Made by a program: the position numbers and the translations under genes. From NCBI GenBank assembly GCA_963698075.1, contig OY969116.1, forward strand, positions 83,881 through 147,880: a stretch of 64,000 bases of DNA, in the 5' to 3' direction. Origin of the DNA: an uncultured Candidatus Berkelbacteria bacterium. GTDB lineage: Bacteria; Patescibacteriota; UBA1384; UBA12157; JAENIV01. This document shows positions 4,849 through 63,927 of this stretch, in pieces (the stretch's first letter is position 1; every line of letters begins with the position of its first letter). The notes beneath the pieces are model-generated. The model was not told where the DNA came from, ran no database searches, and saw only the letters and a list, made by a program, of their open reading frames with translations.

Positions 4849-7347
4849 TTGGAAGTAGGGAGTGATCTCTTTAATATCTTAATTACAGGCGGGTTTTTAG
4901 TTTTTGTCTTTATTTTGTCCTACCTTATTTATTCCGTTTACAAAGCTAATAAAATTAAGCATGAGCTCAAACGGGTTAAAAACTTAAGCATCTTTCAGAT
5001 TAGCATTCCGAGGACACCTCAAACGCCTAAGCAAAACGAACCGCCCAAAGATTTTCGGGAAACTATTGGCGTGGCCGATCAATTTTTTGCCTCCCTTGGT
5101 CATCTTTATGAAGGCAGTTTTGAGAAAAAATTATATGGTCTCCAAAGCCAAATTACCTTAGAAATCATTTCGTTAGACAATAAGCTGGAATTTTTCTCGA
5201 TCGTGCCCAAAGAGATTGAAAGCATCATCGAAAAACAGATTAATTCTTTCTATCCAACGGCCCAAATCCAAAAAACCGCCATTCCCAATATTTTTAAATC
5301 TCGTCAGGGGGCGATGCTCGCTACCAATTTTCGTTTGAATAAAAAATTTATCCTACCGATTCGGACATATAAATATCTTGAGGCTGATCCTTTAAATTCT
5401 CTGACCAATGCCTTATCAAAACTGGGGGCTGGTTCAGGGGCGGCCATCCAACTTATCGTTAAACCGACTACTGATGATTGGCGCAAAGCCGCCGGCATTG
5501 CCGCCCATAAGATTCAGCAAGGAAAATCCTTTGTCTCTGAGCGCTGGTATATGAAGATATTTCATTTTCTCTTTGAAATCCTCGGCGGCGTTTTTCATGG
5601 TTCAAAATCGACTACCACTCCTAAAACTTTAGGACCTGATTTCAAACAACCGGTGCAACTAACACCGATGCAGGAACAGACGCTTAAAGCCCTCAATGAA
5701 AAGGCCTCAAAAACTGGTCTTGGCACCAACATCAGGATTGTCGTGACCGCGCCCAACCACCAAGAGGCAATAGTTAATCTTAAAAACATCACCACTGCCT
5801 TTGGTCAATTTTCTACCCCTGAACTTAATGGTTTTAAGGCAAAAATCTCTGGCAACGAGGTAGTCCGTGATTACATTTTACGACGCTTTACGGGAAAGGG
5901 GATGATTCTTAATTCCGAAGAGTTGGCCTCAATTTGGCATCTGCCCACCCAATATGTTGAAAGTCCTAATATTGCCTGGGCCCAAGCCAAGGAAATGCCG
6001 CCGCCAACGAATTTGCCAGCCGAAGGAGTAATCTTGGGTGAAAGCGTTTATCGGGGTGAGAAAAAGCCGGTGAGGATCAAGGGTGATGACCGCCGTCGGC
6101 ATATCTTTATGATTGGTAAAACTGGCGTTGGTAAAACAACCTTGTTTTCCAACATGATTGAACAGGACATGAAAGCCGGCAATGGCTGTTGTTTTGTTGA
6201 TCCCTTGGGTGACGCCATCGAGGACCTTTTGGGCAAAGTCCCTCAGGAAAGAATCAACGATGTGATCCTTTTCGACCCCTCGGATACTGAAAACCCTGTC
6301 GGTTTAAATCTTTTAGAGTGGCAGACAGCTGACCAACGAGACTTTCTCATTCAAGAAGCAATCCAGATTTTCTATAAACTTTTTGACCCCACCCAGATGG
6401 GAATAGTTGGTCCTCAATGGGAACACTGGTTTCGTAACGCGGCCTTGACGATTATGAATCAACCAGGCGGGGGTACATTAATTGATGTTCCTAGAATCTT
6501 CACTGACGATGCTTTTCGCACTCGATTAATTTCCTCTGTTAGTGATCCAATTGTCAAGGCATTTTGGACGCAACAACTGGCGAAAACCGCTGATTTTCAT
6601 AAGTCTGAAATGTATAATTATTTTATTTCTAAGTTTGGCCGATTTATGACGAACGACCTGATGCGTAATATTATTGGACAGAAGAAATCATCTTTTAATT
6701 TAAGACAAGTAATGGATGAAGGTAAAATTCTTTTTATCAACTTAAGTAAAGGCAAAATTGGCGAAGTCAATTCCAATCTTTTAGGCATGATTTTGGTTTC
6801 TAAAATTCAAATGGCGGCTTTTTCGCGGGCTGACATGCCAGAGGACCAGCGCCGCGACTTTTATTTATATGTCGATGAGTTTCAAAACTTTACCACCGAT
6901 TCTTTTGCCAGCATTCTTTCTGAGGCAAGAAAATATCGCCTCAATTTGGCGATTACCAATCAATACATTGCTCAATTGACGGAAAAGATCCGCGATGCCG
7001 TTATTGGTAACGCGGGAACCATGATTTGTTACCGCATTGGCGCCGCTGATGCCGAGTTTATGGTTAAAGAATTTCCCGGGGTAACTATCGATGATTTAGC
7101 CAATTTGGATAAATTCAATACTTATACCAAACTTTTAATCGATGGGACGCCGACCAAACCCTTTAGTATGCGTGGCTTAAAATCAGCGCAGGCCAGTTCG
7201 TCTCAGATTAGAGAGCAGGCAAGGTCCTTTTCGCAAAAGACTCACGCTCGTCCAAAGAATCAAGTTGAAGCAGAACTGGCCCAACAACTTCAATCGATGG
7301 GTGAGCCGCCTAGCCCTGGAGCAAACGAGCCGATAAGGAATTTGTGA
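4849..7347 (+). CDS. membrane-anchored VirB4/TraC-like (AAA_10 / FtsK-HerA-superfamily) P-loop ATPase, 832 aa
   Basis: N-terminal TM. Walker A HIFMIGKTGVGKTT at about aa 425. Walker B YLYVDEFQNF. Arginine-finger-like SEARKYRLNLAITNQY. TTG start preceded by AAGGAGGA. Confidence 0.65.
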   Translation: MEVGSDLFNILITGGFLVFVFILSYLIYSVYKANKIKHELKRVKNLSIFQISIPRTPQTPKQNEPPKDFRETIGVADQFFASLGHLYEGSFEKKLYGLQSQITLEIISLDNKLEFFSIVPKEIESIIEKQINSFYPTAQIQKTAIPNIFKSRQGAMLATNFRLNKKFILPIRTYKYLEADPLNSLTNALSKLGAGSGAAIQLIVKPTTDDWRKAAGIAAHKIQQGKSFVSERWYMKIFHFLFEILGGVFHGSKSTTTPKTLGPDFKQPVQLTPMQEQTLKALNEKASKTGLGTNIRIVVTAPNHQEAIVNLKNITTAFGQFSTPELNGFKAKISGNEVVRDYILRRFTGKGMILNSEELASIWHLPTQYVESPNIAWAQAKEMPPPTNLPAEGVILGESVYRGEKKPVRIKGDDRRRHIFMIGKTGVGKTTLFSNMIEQDMKAGNGCCFVDPLGDAIEDLLGKVPQERINDVILFDPSDTENPVGLNLLEWQTADQRDFLIQEAIQIFYKLFDPTQMGIVGPQWEHWFRNAALTIMNQPGGGTLIDVPRIFTDDAFRTRLISSVSDPIVKAFWTQQLAKTADFHKSEMYNYFISKFGRFMTNDLMRNIIGQKKSSFNLRQVMDEGKILFINLSKGKIGEVNSNLLGMILVSKIQMAAFSRADMPEDQRRDFYLYVDEFQNFTTDSFASILSEARKYRLNLAITNQYIAQLTEKIRDAVIGNAGTMICYRIGAADAEFMVKEFPGVTIDDLANLDKFNTYTKLLIDGTPTKPFSMRGLKSAQASSSQIREQARSFSQKTHARPKNQVEAELAQQLQSMGEPPSPGANEPIRNL

Positions 7348-7416: not shown

Positions 7417-7968
7417 ATGCAACCATCGGATAAGAAGCTCAAAGAACTAAAAAATCTTCTTGATGAGGCCGAGTCTAAAGTTGCCGCCGCCAAAAGAATT
7501 CTTTTTGAACAAGTTTATCAAGAACAAGCTCTTAATTTAGAAGAGACTGGTAACAGTCAGAAAGGACCTAATACCATTGTTGAGGGAGTTTTTGATGGCG
7601 AGGAGATGATAGATTCGGGTGGTAAAAAATATCCCGTTCCTGCTAATTACGCCTCTAAATCAAAACTTATTCCTGGCGATAAGCTCAAGCTGACAATTGC
7701 CCCTGACGGCACCTTTATCTTCAAGCAAATTGGGCCGGTAGAAAGAAAAAGAATCGTCGGTAAACTCACGGAAAACAATGGCAATTATAAAGTCGTTGTC
7801 TCTGGCAAGAAATATAATTGTCTCAAAGCATCCGTCACCTACTTCCACGGCAGTCCGGGCGACGAGATAACCTGTATAGTCCCCAAAATAGGGGAGAGCG
7901 ACTGGGCGGCGATTGAAAATTGTCTAGGGAAAAAAACGCCGGCGAGCGGCAAAAAAAGATGCGATTGA
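7417..7968 (+). CDS. hypothetical protein (183 aa), coiled-coil N-terminus, Cys-containing C-terminus
   Basis: ATG 7417 preceded by AAAGGAAAC; the track starts at TTG 7390. Confidence 0.5.
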   Translation: MQPSDKKLKELKNLLDEAESKVAAAKRILFEQVYQEQALNLEETGNSQKGPNTIVEGVFDGEEMIDSGGKKYPVPANYASKSKLIPGDKLKLTIAPDGTFIFKQIGPVERKRIVGKLTENNGNYKVVVSGKKYNCLKASVTYFHGSPGDEITCIVPKIGESDWAAIENCLGKKTPASGKKRCD

Positions 7969-7992
7969 TGCGATTAATACGGTAAAAAAACG

Positions 7993-10812
7993 ATGGCAAT
8001 TTTAGAAACAATTGTTTTCCGAGGGTTAATGTATGCCATTTTGGTGGTAATACCGATTTTTTTAATTATTCTATATCTTAGGGCGCGGGCCAATAGAGCC
8101 AAGATGCAGTGGTTTGCTAATCTTAAATTTTTGACCATGAGAATCCTAGTTCCTAAAAATAATGAAAAGACCCCGCTGGCCGCCGAACAAATGTTTGCTG
8201 CTTTGCATGGGGTTTTCAGAAAAGAGAGTCAATTCCAAGATTATTTTTCCTTTGAAATTGCCTCGCGTGAAAAGTTTATTCAATTTTATGTTCATGTTCC
8301 TGAGCATCTTAAAGATTTTATTGAGGGCCAGATTTATTCGCAATATCCAACAGCGGAAATTACTCAAGTTGATGATTATACTTTAGAAGAACGAGAACAA
8401 ATTATCTCTGGCCAGTTCAAATTGGCTGGGACAGAATTAGGCTTGACTAATTTAGATGTTTATCCGATCAAAACCTTTCTTAATTTTGAAGTTGACCCCT
8501 TGGCGGGGATAACAGGCGTGCTTTCCAAACTTGAAAAGGGCGAAGAAATCTGGTTGCAAATTATTGTCAAACCAGTTTCCGACCTATGGCAGTCAAAGGG
8601 CATTGGTCATGTCAGATCGGTCAAGTCTGGGGCCACTAATCAGCAGGGGATATTCGTCGGAATTTTCGGCGCTTTTATAAGATTTTTAGGCGGTCTTCTT
8701 AGTGCCATTTTGACCGGGGTTACGCCGCCATCATCAAAAGAGGAAGCGCCCAAAGAAGAGGCTAAACTGCCAGGAACAGTTGAAGAAGGGCTTAAAGGTG
8801 TTGAAACTAAATCAACCAAACTCGGCTTTGAAACAAAAATCAGACTGCTGGCCTTGGCCACCGACGAAAACATCGCCAGATCAAAATTGGCCTCAACTGT
8901 GGCTGCCTTCAAACAATATAATTTGCTCAATTTGAATGGTTTCCAAGCCAGCAGTATCACCAACTCCTTGGCTTTTTACGATCAATATCGCTACCGGGCT
9001 TTTTTGGAGCCAGGTTATATTTTAAACATTGAAGAACTGGCCTCAATATTTCATTTGCCGAATGTTTCAGTGCAGACACCCAATATTGTTTGGGCGGGTT
9101 CCAAAAAAGGTGAACCCCCGGCTAATTTACCGATTGAAGAAAATGTCTTAAGTTCAGAACTAACTGTATTTGCCAAGACTGATTATCGACATCTGATGCA
9201 TAATTTCGGTATTAAATTATCGGATCGCCGTTATCACATGTATTCAATTGGCAAAACTGGCACTGGTAAAACAACCATGCTCGAAAACATGATTATTGAC
9301 GATATCCGCGAGGGTAGGGGAGTTGCCGTCGTTGACGCCCATGGGGACTTAATCAAAAAATTGCTTAACTATGTTCCCAGCGAAAGAATTAAAGACGTCG
9401 TTCTTTTTTCTCCGGCCGATCGTTTATATCCTCTCGGCTTTAATCCGCTCGAAAATGTTGATCCCGAGTTAAAAAATATTGTCGCCTCAGGCGTTGTCGG
9501 AATTTTTAAGAAAATATTTGGTGAATCCTGGGGACCACGGTTGGAATATATTTTGAGAAATACTATTTTGGCGCTCCTTGATTATCCCAATGCCACCATG
9601 CTCGGGATTACCAAAATTTTGGTTGACCAAGATTTTCGTAATCGTGTGATTGAAAAAATTCAGGATCCGGTGATTAAAGATTTTTTTGTTAATGAATACG
9701 AAAAATATGATCCGAAATTTCGGACTGAGGCCATCGCCCCGATTCAAAACAAAGTTGGCCAATTTTTATCATCATCAACCATCCGCAACATTGTTGGTCA
9801 GCCGAAATCAACCTTTAACATCGAAGAGATTATGAATACCGGCAAAATTATATTTATGGATTTATCAATTGGCGAAATTGGCGAAGACGCTTCAGCTCTT
9901 CTGGGCTCGATGATGATTACCAAAATTCAACTAGCAGCAATGCGACGGGCGACTATTCCCGAAGAAGAACGCAAAGATTTCTATTTATATGTTGACGAGT
10001 TCCAAAATTTTGCCACCGAATCTTTTGCGGTGATTTTATCTGAAGCTCGCAAATATCACCTGAATTTGATTATCACCCATCAATATATTGCTCAAGTTTC
10101 CGAAGAGGTCATGGCGGCTGTTTTTGGTAACTGTGGCACATTGGTTACTTTCCGTGTTGGCGCTCCTGACGCCGCCGCTTTGAAAAAAGAATATGAGCCG
10201 GTTTTTGAGGAAGTTGATTTAGTTAATTTAGATAATTATCATATCTACGTCAAAATGTCAATTGATGGCGTCACTTGTCCTGCTTTTTCGGCCGTCACTT
10301 TGCCTCCAGACAAGATGACTAATACCAATCGTGAAGCGATCCTTGCCCACTCACGCCAAAATTATTCCAAAAGGCGAGAATACGTTGAACAAAAAATGAC
10401 GGACCTAGCGGAAATGCCTAAAGTCGAACAAATCTTAACCAAGGCCGAGCGGGAGCGCATTCCCAAAATTCCGCCGAGAATAGGGGAGACCTATTATCGC
10501 GAAATCCAAACCCCGGGTGATGTTCGCTGGTATTTTGGTGGGGGAACAGTTGATCAGCCCCTGACCGAAGAGACGGTCCAAGAAAAATTAAAAAAACAAT
10601 TGGAAGAAACGCCAGATTGGATGAAGGAGCGACTCGCGGCTCTAGAAAAAAAAGATGATGGGGGAGAGGTGCCCGAAAAGATTGAAGATATTGAAGATTT
10701 AGAAAAAGATAAAGCAACGATGGTTTCGCATCTCGGTCCGTCGGAGAGCGGAAGTCGGATGTCAGATAGCAGTGTCCAACATCTCAAAGACGGTGAGACC
10801 ATTAAGTTGTAG
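7993..10812 (+). CDS. paralogous membrane-anchored VirB4/TraC-like P-loop ATPase, 939 aa
   Basis: Walker A YHMYSIGKTGTGKTT. Walker B YLYVDEFQNF. SEARKYHLNLIITHQY. The N-terminal domain shares motifs with the 4849-7347 protein (FxxLHGxxxxxxFSFEI, IxSQYPTAxI). Acidic C-terminal tail. Confidence 0.65.
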   Translation: MAILETIVFRGLMYAILVVIPIFLIILYLRARANRAKMQWFANLKFLTMRILVPKNNEKTPLAAEQMFAALHGVFRKESQFQDYFSFEIASREKFIQFYVHVPEHLKDFIEGQIYSQYPTAEITQVDDYTLEEREQIISGQFKLAGTELGLTNLDVYPIKTFLNFEVDPLAGITGVLSKLEKGEEIWLQIIVKPVSDLWQSKGIGHVRSVKSGATNQQGIFVGIFGAFIRFLGGLLSAILTGVTPPSSKEEAPKEEAKLPGTVEEGLKGVETKSTKLGFETKIRLLALATDENIARSKLASTVAAFKQYNLLNLNGFQASSITNSLAFYDQYRYRAFLEPGYILNIEELASIFHLPNVSVQTPNIVWAGSKKGEPPANLPIEENVLSSELTVFAKTDYRHLMHNFGIKLSDRRYHMYSIGKTGTGKTTMLENMIIDDIREGRGVAVVDAHGDLIKKLLNYVPSERIKDVVLFSPADRLYPLGFNPLENVDPELKNIVASGVVGIFKKIFGESWGPRLEYILRNTILALLDYPNATMLGITKILVDQDFRNRVIEKIQDPVIKDFFVNEYEKYDPKFRTEAIAPIQNKVGQFLSSSTIRNIVGQPKSTFNIEEIMNTGKIIFMDLSIGEIGEDASALLGSMMITKIQLAAMRRATIPEEERKDFYLYVDEFQNFATESFAVILSEARKYHLNLIITHQYIAQVSEEVMAAVFGNCGTLVTFRVGAPDAAALKKEYEPVFEEVDLVNLDNYHIYVKMSIDGVTCPAFSAVTLPPDKMTNTNREAILAHSRQNYSKRREYVEQKMTDLAEMPKVEQILTKAERERIPKIPPRIGETYYREIQTPGDVRWYFGGGTVDQPLTEETVQEKLKKQLEETPDWMKERLAALEKKDDGGEVPEKIEDIEDLEKDKATMVSHLGPSESGSRMSDSSVQHLKDGETIKL

Positions 10813-29766: not shown

Positions 29767-30456
29767 TTAAAAACTTTCAAATTTCCAAGTGGTAATATCG
29801 CCATCCGTCACCGGTTGAGCTGAAGCCCCAATCATCGAGTAGCTGCCGTTGTAATAAAATGCCCAATAGTAATTGTCATGGCCGCAGATTCCGGCAATGC
29901 AGGTGACAAACGCTCCCAATTCTTCGTAGATTTGATACTCAACACTAAAGCCATTTTCCTGACCTGTGCGAAGAAGAATCGAAAAAGCAGTATCATTAGT
30001 TTGGAGATTAATGGTATAATTGCCGATATTTTCGATTGCCACGGTTGCTTGGTCGGCTGGCGTAGGGGGCGGCGTGGGTGTTGGGCTTGCCCCGAGCGTA
30101 GTCGAGGGGATTGGCGTCGGGGAGGTTGGTCGTGGCGTAGAGGGTTTTTTAGATGATGGTGTCGGGGTGGGCGTGGGTGTTGAAGTTGATTCATTTGTGT
30201 CATTAGGTTGATCAGTCGCTGCTAAAATTTTCCGGCTCTCTGATGGTTTTTCCTCTTTGCTTGCGGCCACTTGAGTATTTCCTAAGTTGTATTCCAACTG
30301 GGTTATTCTTGTTTCGAGTTTATTTTGTTGTTCTTCCAATTTTTGATTTTTGATTTTTAAGTCAGCGACCGTTAACGCTCCGTAGACAAATACTAAAACA
30401 ATCCCAGCGGTAATTGGTAGCCAAAGGTAACTTAATAGTTTTCTCATGCGAAACAT
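29767..30456 (-). CDS. membrane-anchored DUF4430-like protein (coiled coil, Thr/Pro-rich linker, C-terminal DUF4430-like domain)
   Basis: The C-terminus (GAFVTCIAGICGHDNYYWAFYYNGSYSMIGASAQPVTDGDITTWKF) matches the DUF4430 pattern as recalled (G.FV.sIdG..YWmfyVNg...D.Y...DGD.I.W.y). Confidence 0.6.
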   Translation of the reverse strand: MFRMRKLLSYLWLPITAGIVLVFVYGALTVADLKIKNQKLEEQQNKLETRITQLEYNLGNTQVAASKEEKPSESRKILAATDQPNDTNESTSTPTPTPTPSSKKPSTPRPTSPTPIPSTTLGASPTPTPPPTPADQATVAIENIGNYTINLQTNDTAFSILLRTGQENGFSVEYQIYEELGAFVTCIAGICGHDNYYWAFYYNGSYSMIGASAQPVTDGDITTWKFESF

Positions 30457-30475: not shown

Positions 30476-30700
30476 TTAAAAAATCCTTAGCTTCGGTCAT
30501 TCATAGATTGCTAAGGAATTGCCTTTCGACCGAAGGACTTAATACAAAAATTTAAAGTTTTCTGGCTTGTCCTGAGCGAACGAAGTGAGTCGAAGGGCTT
30601 ATTCCTCGACTTTGCTCGGAATAAATCTTTCGTTTTGCTCAAGATTTACAGTAGCGTGACTGCCCCGGATTTCCACCGGGATTACCCTTAAATTTAGGTT
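30476..30700 (-). promoter_or_regulatory. cobalamin (B12) riboswitch-like leader with a terminator attenuator, 5' of the DUF4430 gene
   Basis: The minus-strand RNA GGGUAAUCCCGGUGGAAAUCCGGGGCAGUCACGCUACUGUAA (plus coordinates 30648-30687) matches the cobalamin aptamer core (GGUG.GAA.UCC...GCAG...CGCUACUGU). A partial B12-box AAGCCAGAA lies at 30568-30579. The terminator CCTTAGC...GCTAAGG plus U6 ends 9 nt before the RBS. Confidence 0.55.
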
Positions 30701-30716
30701 GAATTATTAAAGTGAA

Positions 30717-31121
30717 TTATTGTAGCTTCTCGAATCGCCAGTCGATTTTGTCGTTATTTTTAGTCTGGTACTGATCAGAACTAACCGAAGCCAGCTCGTT
30801 ATTGACATAAAACATCCAGTAGCTGTCATTGGTATTGGCCGTACCATCGATTGAGGTGACAAAGACACCCATAGAGGAATCCTCTGCTTTGACATCGTGG
30901 CTGGCTTTCAAAATATCCAAGGCAGTTTTGCCCTCTTGACCATCATAAGCAAGAGTCTTTTCGACTACCGGCTGAAATTGATTGGCAATGCCCGAGACTG
31001 TTTTGTTCACCTGTTTTTTGGAAACATAATTTCCGAGCAGACTGCCGCCAATAATCAAAATTGCCCCCAAAATGATAATGGCAATAAGATTCAACAGTCC
31101 CCATGAGTTCTTCTCAGACAT
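30717..31121 (-). CDS. DUF4430-like small membrane-anchored protein (134 aa)
   Basis: GKTALDILKASHDVKAEDSSMGVFVTSIDGTANTNDSYWMFYVNNELASVSSDQYQTKNNDKIDWRF. Confidence 0.6.
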   Translation of the reverse strand: MSEKNSWGLLNLIAIIILGAILIIGGSLLGNYVSKKQVNKTVSGIANQFQPVVEKTLAYDGQEGKTALDILKASHDVKAEDSSMGVFVTSIDGTANTNDSYWMFYVNNELASVSSDQYQTKNNDKIDWRFEKLQ

Positions 31122-38499: not shown

Positions 38500-38652
38500 T
38501 TAGTGAGTCAAATACCCTCAAAAGTGGCTATCGCAGGCCGAAAAGCAAGGTTTCTGAGCGTAGCGAAGAATTTTTGGCCGAGATCGCAGGCACCGATTGC
38601 GCGCTGGAGCAATCGTAGTGCCGGCATCTTTTGACGGGTATTGGCGAGCGAA
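38500..38652 (-). repeat. ~150-nt structured MITE/REP-like repeat, copy C (inverted relative to copies A and B)
   Basis: reverse complement is ~85-90% identical to 59645-59780 and 62128-62275 (CGTCAAAAGATGCCGGCACTACGATTGCTCCAGCGCGCAATCGGTGCCTGCGATCTCGGCCAAAAA...CTTTTGAGG). Confidence 0.5.
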
Positions 38653-59271: not shown

Positions 59272-59625
59272 TCACTCAATCCGGTGCTCTTCAAACTCAA
59301 CGCGCTTATTCCAGACGAGCTCGGCAATCTGCCTCTGGCGCGGGGTCAGTTGGGAATTAGAACTTTTGAACTCAATAAAAACGATTTTATCATCGCAAAA
59401 TTGAATGCCGTCGATTGGCGTGCCGATGAAGCGGAAATTGCCCGGCTCATAAGGGTAGTCTTTCAAAAACGGCATAAATTGCTCGGTCATTTTGCCGTAT
59501 TTGGAAGAAAGTGAGTTTTTGGAAAAAGCGACTTCAGCATGACGGGCACTCACCCGCCGCCATAATATAAATAGTAGAATGACGAGAAAGGAAAGAATGA
59601 TAATGATTTCAATCGAGATTGACAC
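59272..59625 (-). CDS. membrane-anchored small protein with a PD-(D/E)xK-like (IEFK) nuclease-fold hint
   Basis: N-terminal TM; DDKIVFIEFKSSNSQLTPRQRQ. Confidence 0.35.
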   Translation of the reverse strand: MSISIEIIIILSFLVILLFILWRRVSARHAEVAFSKNSLSSKYGKMTEQFMPFLKDYPYEPGNFRFIGTPIDGIQFCDDKIVFIEFKSSNSQLTPRQRQIAELVWNKRVEFEEHRIE

Positions 59626-59644
59626 AATTCCTCCTTAGAGTCGG

Positions 59645-59780
59645 CTCGCTTATACCCGTCAAAAGATGCCGGCACTACGATTGCTCCAGCGCGCAATCGG
59701 TGCCTGCGCTCTCGGCCAAAAACCCGCCGCTTCGCTCTGGGACCGTGCTTTTTGGCCTGCGAGAGCCACTTTTGAGGGCA
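59645..59780 (+). repeat. ~150-nt structured MITE/REP-like repeat, copy A
   Basis: terminal inverted repeat CGTCAAAAG / CTTTTGAGG; internal hairpins CGATTGC-N8-GCAATCG and GGCCAAAAA...TTTTTGGCC. Confidence 0.5.
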
Positions 59781-59920
59781 TTAAGCTCGCCTCCTTTTAA
59801 TAGTATCGGTTCTAAAGAATCTATTTTAAAAGTTGAAGCCCAAATTAAATTACCTAAACTTTCTAATAACTCCACGCATTTACCCCGTTTGATACGAAGT
59901 TATCTAACGGGGCCCTCCAT

Positions 59921-60517
59921 TTATCTAAATTTTCTTATCACTCCCCTAACTCGTCCCTGTATCATCACTTTTTTAACTCGTATCGGACCGTATTTTGGGT
60001 TGGACGGTTGCAAGCGGACATGGTCTTTTTCTTTGTAAAATCTTTTCAAAGTGGCATTTTCGTTATCGAGTAAAGCCACCACAATATCGCCGTTATTGGG
60101 GGTGGCAGTTTGCTCAATAATAATATAGTCGCCGTCAAAAATCCCCTCTTCAATCATCGAATCGCCGCGCACTTTTAGGGCAAAAACGTTTTTGCCCATC
60201 ATATCTTTGGGAATATCAATCGTTTCGTTGGTTCTTATCGCTTCAATCGGCGAACCAGCGGCAATGAGGCCCATTAAAGGAATTTCGAAAGTTCGCTCGT
60301 CCCAACGAGGGGTCAATTGTAGCGATCGGGCCTCGTTAAAATCTTTAGTGAGAAAACCTTTCGCTTTCAAATTTTCCAAATGCACCGCTACGGTGGCAAC
60401 TGACCCCAAGTGGAATTTTTCCGCAATCTCGCGAAAAGAAGGGGCATAATCGCGAGTTTCGATAAAATCAGAGATAAAATCTAAGATTTCTTTTTGTCGT
60501 TTGGTTAAATGTTCCAT
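59921..60517 (-). CDS. lexA: LexA repressor
   Basis: N-terminal wHTH; GDSM (catalytic Ser), LKRF (Lys); Ala-Gly cleavage site. Confidence 0.9.
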   Translation of the reverse strand: MEHLTKRQKEILDFISDFIETRDYAPSFREIAEKFHLGSVATVAVHLENLKAKGFLTKDFNEARSLQLTPRWDERTFEIPLMGLIAAGSPIEAIRTNETIDIPKDMMGKNVFALKVRGDSMIEEGIFDGDYIIIEQTATPNNGDIVVALLDNENATLKRFYKEKDHVRLQPSNPKYGPIRVKKVMIQGRVRGVIRKFR

Positions 60518-60681
60518 GTTTCTCTCCTAGATATCGCCTCGGGTCATGGCGCTCGCTTTCAGCCACCCTAGCCAACCTATTCGTCTACTTCCGATTCGCC
60601 TCGCGCCTGGCTGCGGCGAAATCGGAGCGTAGACTCAACCGGCATTTCGCTCGGCCACTCCCCTTGGCTCAGATAATAATA

Positions 60682-60734
60682 GTTCTTATTTTGTTCGCTA
60701 ATTTAATCATACGAACAAAAAGCGAACTTGTCAA
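60682..60734 (-). promoter_or_regulatory. lexA promoter (TTGACA-17-TATGAT on the minus strand) with two GTTC-N7-GTTC direct-repeat boxes
   Basis: minus-strand -35 at 60729-60734 and -10 at 60706-60711; boxes GTTCTTATTTTGTTC (60682-60696, plus strand) and GTTCGCTTTTTGTTC (reverse complement of 60713-60727). Confidence 0.5.
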
Positions 60735-60767
60735 GTACTAAGTTGTGGATAACTTTTAGACCGGGAA

Positions 60768-62081
60768 CTATTTACTAAATCTTTTTTTGAGAACCTCGAT
60801 GAGACGTTTCTGGGAAATCGTCTCTTGGGAGCCGGAATCCATATCTTTAAAAATGACACTTTTATCAATGGCTTCCCGCTGACCGATTATCAAGCAGACT
60901 TGGGCGCCAAGTTTACTGGCCGATCTGAGTTGGCCCTTAAAAGAATCTTTGCCAATTATCGTTGAGGCCCGGAACCCTTCATTATCGAGCATGACGGCAA
61001 TAGCTAAGGCCTGTTTGCGGGCCCTCTCGCCTAATTGGACCAGACAAATATCGGTTAATTTTTCTTCTTTGATATTGATATTGCTTTGTTTAATTGCCTC
61101 AATAATGCGCTCCACACCAGCGGCCCAACCAATTGCCGGGGTGGCCGGACCTCCCAGCAGTTTGATTAAATCATCATAGCGTCCGCCGCCAATTAAAGTG
61201 CGCTGGCGGGTTTTATCGTTCGCTTCATAAATTTCAAAAACGGTGCGAGTGTAATAATCTAAGCCTCTGACCAAACGAGAATTGAGGTTGTAGGGAATAT
61301 CCAAGAAATCAAGGCCCTCGAGGACTTCTTTAAAATGACTTTTGCAAAGCTCGCATAAAAGATCAACCAGTTGCGGAGCGCCAGCGATGATTTTTTGGCA
61401 TTTTTCTTCTTTGCAGTCCAAAATCCTTAAAGGATTCTCAATAAATCGGCGATTACAATCCGGACAAAGAGCCGGCAAGAAATTTTGGAAATATTCGATC
61501 AATTTTTTCTTCATTTTCGGCCGGCAATTACTGCAGCCGATGCTGTTGATATCAACAACGAGGGTGGTTTTAAGGCCGGTTTTTTTCAAAATCTGCCAGG
61601 CAAGATAAATGGTGTTGATGTCGGCCAGCGCGCTATCATCGCCAATAATTTCTGCGCCAAATTGATTATGAATGCGAAAGCGTCCCGCTTGCGGTCGTTC
61701 ATAGCGGAAAGCCGGTCCCCAATACCAAAGTTTCACCGGCTGGGGCCAACTTATCATCCCATTTTCTAAATAAGCCCGGACAACGCCAGCAGTATATTCG
61801 GGTCTTAAAACCATCATCCGCGTATCATCGGCATCGAGCGGCTCATTGGCAATACTTGAGGCCTGGCGGACTTCAAACATTTCTTTATCAACAATATCAG
61901 TTCCTTTACCAATGGCGCGAGTATATATCTCGACATATTCAAAAATCGGTGTCTCGATCCTTTTAGCGCCGAAAACGCCAAAATTTTGGCGGACCAAATC
62001 AAAAAGATAGAACCAATATTTTTGGTCATCGGGTAAGATATCTTTGGTGCCACGAGGGGCTTGAAGATTTGCTTTAGCCAT
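60768..62081 (-). CDS. hisS: histidine--tRNA ligase
   Basis: class II aaRS motifs; 437 aa; MAKANLQAPRGTKDILP. Confidence 0.9.
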   Translation of the reverse strand: MAKANLQAPRGTKDILPDDQKYWFYLFDLVRQNFGVFGAKRIETPIFEYVEIYTRAIGKGTDIVDKEMFEVRQASSIANEPLDADDTRMMVLRPEYTAGVVRAYLENGMISWPQPVKLWYWGPAFRYERPQAGRFRIHNQFGAEIIGDDSALADINTIYLAWQILKKTGLKTTLVVDINSIGCSNCRPKMKKKLIEYFQNFLPALCPDCNRRFIENPLRILDCKEEKCQKIIAGAPQLVDLLCELCKSHFKEVLEGLDFLDIPYNLNSRLVRGLDYYTRTVFEIYEANDKTRQRTLIGGGRYDDLIKLLGGPATPAIGWAAGVERIIEAIKQSNINIKEEKLTDICLVQLGERARKQALAIAVMLDNEGFRASTIIGKDSFKGQLRSASKLGAQVCLIIGQREAIDKSVIFKDMDSGSQETISQKRLIEVLKKRFSK

Positions 62082-62127: not shown

Positions 62128-62275
62128 GCTCGCCAGTATCCGTCAAAAGATGCCGGCACTACGATTGCTCCAGCGCGCAATCGGTGCCTGCGATCTCGGC
62201 CAAAAATCCTCGGACTACCTCGGAGCCATGCTTTTTGGCCTGCGATAGCCACTTTTGAGGATACACGGCTCGCTT
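62128..62275 (+). repeat. ~150-nt structured MITE/REP-like repeat, copy B
   Basis: about 90% identical to copy A. Confidence 0.5.
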
Positions 62276-62424
62276 TATACAAGAGCCGAGGGGAGCCCCT
62301 GAACGAATGGCGGTCTCGACTGCGTTCATTATCGATGAGCCAGGCGCGAATTGATAAGGAAGCAGTCGAGTAGGTCGGTTAGGGAGCCTGAATGTGAACG
62401 GGGCGACCCGAGGCGAAATATTAA

Positions 62425-63927
62425 TTATATCGTCCTTACTCTCAACGCCCGGCGGATGTGGGAGCGGGCTAAAGAAGTTTTGGCAATTCCAAGCCAATCA
62501 CGTTTGGGGCCAGAGGGCCTTTTTGATTTCAGAATTTCGATAATATCGCCGTTTCGTAAGGGAGTAGAAAGACTTGTCATCTTGCCATTAATTTTTGCGC
62601 CGACACAAGAATTGCCGAGCTCCGAATGAATCGTATAGGCAAAGTCAATCGGCGTTGCCCCCGCCGGCAGATCTTTGACGTCACCTCTAGGAGTGTAGAC
62701 AAAAATCCGATCCGAGAAAAAATCCACTTGAATATCATTTTGGAATTGACGATTATCTCGGGAGAGTGCTTGCCAACGGGCTAACTCTTTAACCCAGCGG
62801 ATATCTTCATGGGGAGCGCGTTTGATTTTCTTTAAAATATAATCCAAAGTGCCTTTGGTTTCGGCGTAATGCCAACCGGCGGCAATGCCGTTTTCTGCTT
62901 GCTGGTGCATTGCTCGGGTGCGAATTTGAAATTCCACGATCCGGCCATCCAGACAAAAAACCGTCGTGTGGAGCGATTGGTAACCGTTGGGCTTGGGCAT
63001 GGCAATATAGTCTTTAATTCGGCCAACTAAGGGTTTCCATTGCTCATGAATTATCCCCAAAACTTTATAACAATCGGCGACAGACGAAACTACCACTCGC
63101 AAAGCCACCAAATCGTAGATACGGGTCAAATCATTGTCATAACGCTGGAGCTTACGCCACAAAGAATAAAGATGCTTGGCCCGACCATTGATTTCTGCCT
63201 TTATCCCTTCATTAGCGAGCCGGCGAATTAAATATTTTTTGACCTTTTCTAAATAGCGCGTCCGTTCTTCGAAAGCGTCTTTGATTTGTTTTTTGAGCCA
63301 TTGGTACTCGTCCGGATAAATGTAGGGAAAAGCCAAATCCTCAAGTTGGCCTTTGAGCTCACCCATGCCCAAACGATAAGCCAAGGGAGCATAAATTTCG
63401 AGAGTCTCTTTAGCAATTCTTAATCGTTTTTCCCCTTCAACACCTTCCAGCGTTTTCATGTTGTGAAGTCGATCAGCCAGTTTAATGATGACCACGCGAA
63501 TATCACGGGCCATGGCGACAAACATCTTCCGCAAAGTTTCGACTTGGCGATCAAAACTCTCGATCTCTTCTTTATTTTTGAAAATAAACCAGCGACGAGT
63601 AATCCGGATCCTGCCTAATTTGGTGACGCCGTCAACCAAATTAGCCACGGTTTTGCCAAATTCTTTTTGGACTGTGGCGAGCGGGATACTAGCATCTTCA
63701 ATGCAATCATGTAAAACCGCGGCGATGATGGTCGCTTCATCAAGTTTCAAATCGGCAATGTAAATAGCAGTTTCTAAACAATGTTTAAGATAAGGCTCGC
63801 CCGTATGACGCTTCTGCGTCAAATGTGCATGCCGAGCAAATTCGCAAGCGCGCAGAATTTCCTTTTGCTCATTGGGGTTGAGATATTTAATTTTAGATTT
63901 TAAAGCGGTTAAAGATAGCTGTGGCAT
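62425..63927 (-). CDS. RelA/SpoT-family (p)ppGpp synthetase/hydrolase (short form, 500 aa)
   Basis: HD hydrolase HDCIEDA; synthetase domain; TGS. Confidence 0.85.
   Translation of the reverse strand: MPQLSLTALKSKIKYLNPNEQKEILRACEFARHAHLTQKRHTGEPYLKHCLETAIYIADLKLDEATIIAAVLHDCIEDASIPLATVQKEFGKTVANLVDGVTKLGRIRITRRWFIFKNKEEIESFDRQVETLRKMFVAMARDIRVVIIKLADRLHNMKTLEGVEGEKRLRIAKETLEIYAPLAYRLGMGELKGQLEDLAFPYIYPDEYQWLKKQIKDAFEERTRYLEKVKKYLIRRLANEGIKAEINGRAKHLYSLWRKLQRYDNDLTRIYDLVALRVVVSSVADCYKVLGIIHEQWKPLVGRIKDYIAMPKPNGYQSLHTTVFCLDGRIVEFQIRTRAMHQQAENGIAAGWHYAETKGTLDYILKKIKRAPHEDIRWVKELARWQALSRDNRQFQNDIQVDFFSDRIFVYTPRGDVKDLPAGATPIDFAYTIHSELGNSCVGAKINGKMTSLSTPLRNGDIIEILKSKRPSGPKRDWLGIAKTSLARSHIRRALRVRTI

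Follow-up and report, generated by a model that had tools for sequence, protein, structure and literature searches.

Head-to-tail repeats as putative LexA operators in the lexA promoter of a Berkelbacteria genome

The region upstream of lexA in the 64-kb stretch of DNA analyzed here (hereafter the window, meaning that whole stretch at its full length) is very probably the autoregulatory region of lexA, in which LexA would read head-to-tail copies of (G)TTCG(G) placed one helical turn apart, and not a palindrome. This reading was drawn from the sequence of the promoter and its comparison with related loci. The lexA promoter, TTGACA-17-TATGAT, matches the sigma-70 consensus at 11 of 12 positions and is the best promoter-like site within 59800–60900. 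Its spacer is occupied by GTTCGCTTTTTGTTCG, and an inverted copy of the repeat, GTTCTTATTTTGTTCG, lies directly beyond the -10 hexamer. The elements of the region, from upstream to downstream of the promoter, are as follows.

62425–63927, minus strand: relA/spoT, upstream of hisS on the same strand
60768–62081, minus strand: hisS, upstream of lexA on the same strand
60744–60752, minus strand: perfect DnaA-box 9-mer TTATCCACA, ending 9 nt upstream of the -35 hexamer
60729–60734, minus strand: -35 hexamer TTGACA of the lexA promoter, invariant in the five Berkelbacteria-type promoters that were aligned
60711–60727, minus strand: box 1, GTTCGCTTTTTGTTCGT, TTCG repeated head-to-tail every 11 bp and taking up all 17 nt between the -35 and -10 hexamers
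60706–60711, minus strand: -10 hexamer TATGAT of the lexA promoter, separated by a 17-nt spacer from the -35
60682–60698, plus strand: box 2, GTTCTTATTTTGTTCGC, in inverted orientation, at about +2 to +18 relative to the predicted transcript start
59921–60517, minus strand: lexA, 198 aa, with Pfam matches to LexA_DNA_bind (PF01726, 4.6e-20) and Peptidase_S24 (PF00717, 5.3e-34)
59272–59625, minus strand: gene for a Holliday-junction-resolvase-related endonuclease (PF10107, Pfam Endonuc_Holl, 1.1e-19)

The core of box 1, GTTCGCTTTTTGTTC, spans 60713–60727 on the minus strand, and the core of box 2, GTTCTTATTTTGTTC, spans 60682–60696 on the plus strand; every sequence and position that an earlier note on this DNA had given for the boxes and the promoter is exact. 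Box 1 is almost certainly the primary LexA operator, a putative assignment made from sequence, and box 2, whose distal half-site is poor (TTCT in place of TTCG), is probably a second and weaker putative operator.

The product of lexA aligns end to end with both Thermotoga maritima LexA (3K2Z, E 2e-34), the closest solved LexA structure, and Escherichia coli LexA. The cleavage site Ala87-Gly88, the serine Ser120 (within GDSM), and the lysine Lys158 (within LKRF) fall in register with both proteins and, judged by these residues, the window LexA is a canonical self-cleaving repressor with a complete catalytic apparatus. We scanned one genome per GTDB species with this protein, and its nearest relatives were encoded by Berkelbacteria/Patescibacteria MAGs at 88–63% identity, among them L001 (88%) and the complete Berkelbacteria genome CP011213 (L004, 77%). 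After Patescibacteria, the next relatives belong to Gemmatimonadota and Acidobacteriota and are about 50% identical; no alphaproteobacterium was found among the best 80 genome matches, in a scan that favours close relatives. By its lexA relatives, then, the host genome is one of the Berkelbacteria/Patescibacteria (CPR).

Counts of the bare pattern were uninformative in the window. GTTC-N7-GTTC was not enriched in the 64 kb (three matches against 1.81 expected, with 24 of 100 shuffles reaching three), and neither was TTCG-N7-TTCG to a significant degree (seven against 4.7 expected). Two of the three GTTC-N7-GTTC matches sit 17 nt apart and flank the lexA -10; by arithmetic from the background rate, a second match would be expected at most about 50 nt from a first roughly 0.3% of the time. 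Because the bare pattern was too weak, a matrix and orthologues were needed. We built a weight matrix from 28 orthologous lexA-promoter sites (consensus GTTCGGTTTTTGTTCGGT), with which box 1 scored 22.0, the best site in the 64 kb, and box 2 scored 15.3, the second best; the next-best matches in the window scored 12.3 and lie inside ORFs. The matrix scan of the window revealed no other regulon member, including no box for sbcCD or the methylpurine glycosylase (MPG) gene, and reading the upstream regions in the window revealed none before the class II RNR gene or mgsA/rarA. The decisive case for the boxes is comparative conservation, not bare-pattern counts.

This conservation was assessed by footprinting, that is, by reading the 300 nt upstream of lexA in related loci, as the earlier note had proposed. 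A direct repeat between -35 and -10 is kept in 37 of 41 Patescibacteria lexA loci (site score of at least 14, counting sites upstream of lexA, of its operon, or of a co-oriented small gene), a count that is partly circular in that the matrix derives from the same lexA promoters it scores. The usual layout in relatives is TTGACA, then (N)TTCGGTTTTTGTTCGG, then a TATAAT-like hexamer, and the consensus of the Patescibacteria lexA operator is GTTCGGTTTTTGTTCGG. Its core, TTCG-N7-TTCG, is essentially invariant, with an 11-bp period and 1.4–2.0 bits per position. The first G of GTTC carries 0.3 bit and the G that follows TTC carries 2.0 bits, which places the conserved core one base further on, at TTCG(G). 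The form GTTC-N7-GTTC put forward in the earlier note describes both window boxes letter for letter.

The oppositely oriented box downstream, also described in that note, is present, but its distal half-site is poorly conserved. Scanning with the matrix identified an inverted second box in the window and in L003, L004, L009, and L012–L015; that of L001 was seen by eye in the alignment and falls below the scan threshold. All of these loci are of Berkelbacteria type, and most other Patescibacteria have box 1 only. The gap between box 1 and box 2 ranges from 12 to 52 nt; L009 has the widest, 52 nt, and most loci fall between 12 and 19 nt. In a five-way alignment, conservation is good for the promoter-near half-site of box 2 together with its A-run, CGAACAAAA; the distal half-site reads variously GAAC, GAAA, or GTAG. 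In L012, four half-sites follow one another in phase, 11 bp apart. Across the sequences compared, promoters of this LexA clade often have more than one box, in either relative orientation. We also observed LexA boxes about 500 nt upstream of lexA in two loci (L012:2462–2536 and L028:2508–2557), where they precede an inserted PF05635 gene, annotated as a '23S rRNA-intervening sequence protein'.

Neither recA nor a translesion polymerase gene was found in the 64-kb window, so we tested the regulon in relatives; related genomes and metagenomes supply the evidence on this point, and the window organism itself supplies none. In three loci (L007, L008, and L011), a Y-family polymerase gene (Pfam IMS and IMS_C) lies just upstream of lexA and is preceded by a box of its own, with scores of 23.4, 23.4, and 28.9, respectively. 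A scan of metagenome contigs for exact matches, which is independent of the weight matrix, found the 16-mer TTCGGTTTTTGTTCGG at no fewer than 124 sites, at least 22 of them directly upstream of lexA. Among the matches listed, the 16-mer also lies upstream of a cassette of a small protein and a Y-family polymerase (six sites), rarA/mgsA (two), radical-SAM genes (two), and an imuA/RecA-like gene (one), and most of the remaining sites have no promoter context. Since LexA-type genes make up a tiny fraction of all genes, this association is not due to chance. Outside the lexA upstream regions, about 220 kb of locus sequence contained only about eight other sites.

The proposal of the earlier note that this lineage uses a direct-repeat SOS box instead of a palindrome is therefore supported, both by the 37 conserved loci and by the repeats before Y-family polymerase, rarA/mgsA, radical-SAM, and imuA-like genes. 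Its expectation of the motif upstream of DNA-damage genes held for relatives and metagenomes, but no further site occurs in the window. What the note had named as speaking against its proposal was a motif neither enriched at damage genes nor conserved in orthologous lexA promoters; we found the association with damage genes as well as the conservation. From these sequences, the CPR SOS regulon appears to comprise few genes, chiefly lexA, those of translesion polymerases, and rarA, along with a few more.

Several further loci came to light in this survey. The small protein of the polymerase cassette, of about 83 aa, is conserved and is encoded by the first gene behind the box in L087, L092, L097, L121, L130, and L174; it had no significant Pfam match. 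The gene after it encodes a polymerase in L087 (IMS by Pfam) and L092 (IMS-like by sequence), and the small protein may be an accessory factor of the translesion cassette. Another high-scoring box (L008:5062–5078) lies about 130 nt upstream of a gene with a CHAP domain (peptidoglycan hydrolase, by Pfam), and a box occupies the corresponding position in L007 (L007:5098–5114). In L128, a 525-aa ORF (7537–9111, plus strand) combines LexA_DNA_bind and Peptidase_S24 with a complete C-5 cytosine DNA methylase domain that follows them. This ORF, which is preceded by a consensus LexA box and a DnaA box, appears from its domains to be LexA fused to a Dcm-type methylase, and a 519-aa ORF in L186 has the same LexA N-terminus.

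The inverted arrangement of the two window boxes also admits other readings. One, raised in the earlier note as a pairing of GTTCG with CGAAC, is a single long-spaced palindrome, TTGTTCG-N14-CGAACAA (60691–60718), to which one symmetric LexA dimer would bind across the -10, with the outer GTTC/GAAC incidental. Box 1 and box 2 do pair as an inverted repeat of 17 nt with 82% complementarity across a gap of 14 nt, and it is the inner half-sites and the adjacent T and A runs that are best conserved in the five closest promoters. However, the inner spacing in those five promoters is 14, 15, 16, 17, and 18 nt, and in L009 it is about 55 nt. Moreover, most Patescibacteria promoters of lexA, and those of dinB, rarA, and radical-SAM genes, have a single direct repeat and no second box, and the two boxes found in Gemmatimonadota share one orientation. 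The variable inner spacing favours two separately bound operators over one long palindrome. On this ground, we rejected a fixed palindrome read by one dimer, and we regard the long-spaced reading as very improbable. That some other regulatory protein than LexA recognises the repeat, or that it merely belongs to the spacer of strong promoters in Patescibacteria, seems to us extremely improbable. A T-rich spacer could be a promoter trait, but the motif lies specifically before lexA, translesion polymerase, imuA-like, rarA, and SOS-type radical-SAM genes; the background in locus sequence is as low as given above, with no site in the rest of the window; and LexA proteins described in the literature as a rule regulate their own gene (PMC8565304).

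The inverted pair might also act mainly at the RNA level, as a hairpin that terminates or stabilises the end of the hisS transcript, and not as protein-binding sites. The spacer between hisS and lexA is 250 nt long, hisS ends with a stop codon only about 35 nt before the lexA -35, and no further terminator came to light; read-through RNA from 60670 to 60740 folds at -16.5 kcal/mol (z = -3.3). Yet the stem is AU-rich and lacks a U-tract, and the terminator scan did not call it. Across loci, the loop would be anywhere from 12 to 52 nt long, and box 1 is kept alone in dozens of promoters with differing upstream genes. Opposite copies of one motif are, in any case, automatically complementary. A primary role as a hairpin is thus very unlikely, and pairing of the operators in RNA would be a by-product, with at most a secondary use.

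In the model of two separately bound direct-repeat operators, LexA on box 1 would fill the spacer between -35 and -10 and block RNA polymerase, and LexA on box 2 would cover the predicted start region and tighten repression. Upon DNA damage, activated RecA would induce self-cleavage of LexA at Ala87-Gly88 by means of Ser120 and Lys158. LexA would thereby leave both boxes, and transcription of lexA, probably together with the PF10107 endonuclease gene downstream, would follow. The occlusion and RecA-relief steps are modelled on the general LexA paradigm as it is described in passages of PMC8565304 and PMC7739468.

An operator of this kind has a precedent in the same superphylum. In the part of PMC7739468 that bears on LexA direct repeats, Sanchez-Osuna, Barbe and Erill (Environ Microbiol 2017, 19:3465; reference 52 there) is cited among the cases, for the SOS network and LexA motif of Patescibacteria. 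Per PMC7739468, that motif and ours share the superphylum and the kind of operator, a likeness of type and not a comparison of its logos with GTTCGGTTTTTGTTCGG. As far as that passage goes, our main finding is correct and largely already known for Patescibacteria, and the window is one more ordinary instance. As in SOS networks generally, the motif lies at the lexA promoter and, in relatives, before translesion polymerase genes. The 2017 study reportedly combined comparative genomics with EMSA.

The alphaproteobacterial SOS box, GTTC-N7-GTTC / GAAC-N7-GAAC, is described for Rhodobacter, Sinorhizobium, and Caulobacter in sections of PMC8565304 and PMC3091678. Like the window boxes, it repeats a tetranucleotide head-to-tail at 11-bp intervals, and the GTTC letters are identical in both. 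The core here differs, however, in being TTCG(G), with the first G not conserved; LexA here has 198 aa, and its nearest relatives outside Patescibacteria in the genome scan are those of Gemmatimonadota and Acidobacteriota, no alphaproteobacterium being among the best 80. The R. sphaeroides recA promoter is said to combine a GTTC-type and a GAAC-type box in opposite orientations, as in the window.

The Gram-positive Cheo box, CGAAC-N4-GTTCG, is given as the site of B. subtilis LexA/DinR in a section of PMC3091678. It is built from the same pentanucleotide half-site, GTTCG/CGAAC, as the window boxes, but the half-sites here stand head-to-tail 11 bp apart, whereas those of the Cheo box form a palindrome with a 4-nt spacer. 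We found no Cheo palindrome near lexA; allowing at most one mismatch, the 64 kb contained three matches, all elsewhere, against 1.7 expected. The recognition helix of the window LexA, SVATVAVHL, looks closer to that of B. subtilis than to that of alphaproteobacterial LexA, which we treat as a lead.

The lexA promoters of Gemmatimonadota and Acidobacteriota (L037–L075) have two boxes of the form TTCGG-N6-TTCGG in the same orientation, offset by about 26 nt. As in the window, one such repeat occupies the promoter spacer and a second lies just downstream; the second box there keeps the same orientation at a fixed offset, whereas that of Berkelbacteria is inverted and stands at varying distances. 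These tandem boxes indicate that the direct-repeat mode of LexA reaches well beyond Patescibacteria. The LexA box of Acidobacterium capsulatum is attributed to Mazon et al. 2006 in PMC7739468 (reference 53), going by its citing passage.

The DnaA-box 9-mer beside the promoter is a less expected element. The copy at 60744–60752 is the only perfect TTATCCACA in the 64 kb, and the same 9-mer occurs at most 300 nt upstream of lexA in 17 of the 41 Patescibacteria genome loci (L001, L004, L011, L014, L017, L020–L026, L029, L031, L035, L036, and L080). Its density upstream of lexA is 1.46 per kb, compared to 0.03 per kb elsewhere in the same loci, a difference of about 46-fold. Among the metagenome matches listed, it is present in 14 of 22 lexA loci; overall, about half of the Patescibacteria lexA promoters have it. 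By contrast, none of the 39 non-Patescibacteria loci has it upstream of lexA, and it is absent from the lexA promoters of Gemmatimonadota/Acidobacteriota; none was found at the polymerase-cassette promoters that we examined. The start of the 9-mer clusters 23–28 nt upstream of the first TTCG of box 1, and an alternative position lies 21–54 nt downstream of that TTCG, mostly in the opposite orientation. A literature search returned no paper linking a DnaA box to a lexA promoter, and the association is possibly new. We advance only tentatively, as a possibility short of an even chance, that Patescibacteria lexA promoters are jointly controlled by LexA and DnaA, and that Berkelbacteria add to this two convergent operators and a resolvase-like endonuclease partner.

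That partner, the PF10107 gene, consistently follows lexA in Berkelbacteria-type loci and lies directly downstream of it in six relatives: the order hisS-lexA-PF10107 is common to L002 and L003, and lexA-PF10107 alone is found in L001, L004, L006, and L009. From this gene order, the endonuclease gene is a probable regulon member, probably co-transcribed with lexA, and a candidate lineage-specific SOS gene. The endonuclease is related to the archaeal Holliday junction resolvase. In the window, 295 nt separate lexA from the PF10107 gene, and this spacer holds a copy of one of two GC-rich repeat families. These repeats and one RNA element of the window are located as follows.

59644–59782, 38511–38651, and 62128–62260: GC-rich repeat family A, about 140 nt, copies 87–91% identical
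60531–60670: GC-rich repeat family B, about 140 nt, in the lexA leader of about 180 nt
30537–30731, minus strand: cobalamin riboswitch, RF00174, 33.1 bits, just above the gathering score

The predicted transcript start near 60699 implies the leader of about 180 nt, in which the family B copy pushes the promoter away from the lexA ATG. A second family B copy, at 62283–62419, is in reverse orientation and 71% identical. The interval between hisS and relA contains members of both families, which resemble MITE or REP elements. Folding of the leader gives a long hairpin (z = -2.8), and with a leader of this length, translation control or another promoter is possible. An Rfam search assigned no family to the leader or to the neighbouring intergenic repeats, and its only matches were the cobalamin riboswitch elsewhere in the window and a noise-level miRNA match. 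That riboswitch lies upstream of the ORF at 29767–30456. Between 55600 and 59270, a stretch of about 3.7 kb with an elevated GC content of about 0.5–0.52 holds only short overlapping ORFs; its longer ORFs had no Pfam match, and neither a tRNA nor a credible Rfam match was found there. The tRNA scan found none. Two large proteins resembling coupling proteins of the TrwB/VirD4 type (T4SS-DNA_transf, TrwB_AAD_bind) are encoded side by side at 4849–7347 and 7993–10812, both on the plus strand.

Head-to-tail re-use of the GTTCG half-site by LexA is a principle already in the literature, and the practical yield for the window is modest: an annotated lexA promoter with two putative operators and a likely co-regulated endonuclease gene. 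With the operator known, the SOS regulon of uncultured CPR bacteria can be read directly from sequence. If the joint control by LexA and DnaA is real, the level of the SOS repressor would be tied to the replication-initiation status in these minimal genomes, and the DnaA box would link replication control and damage control across the superphylum.
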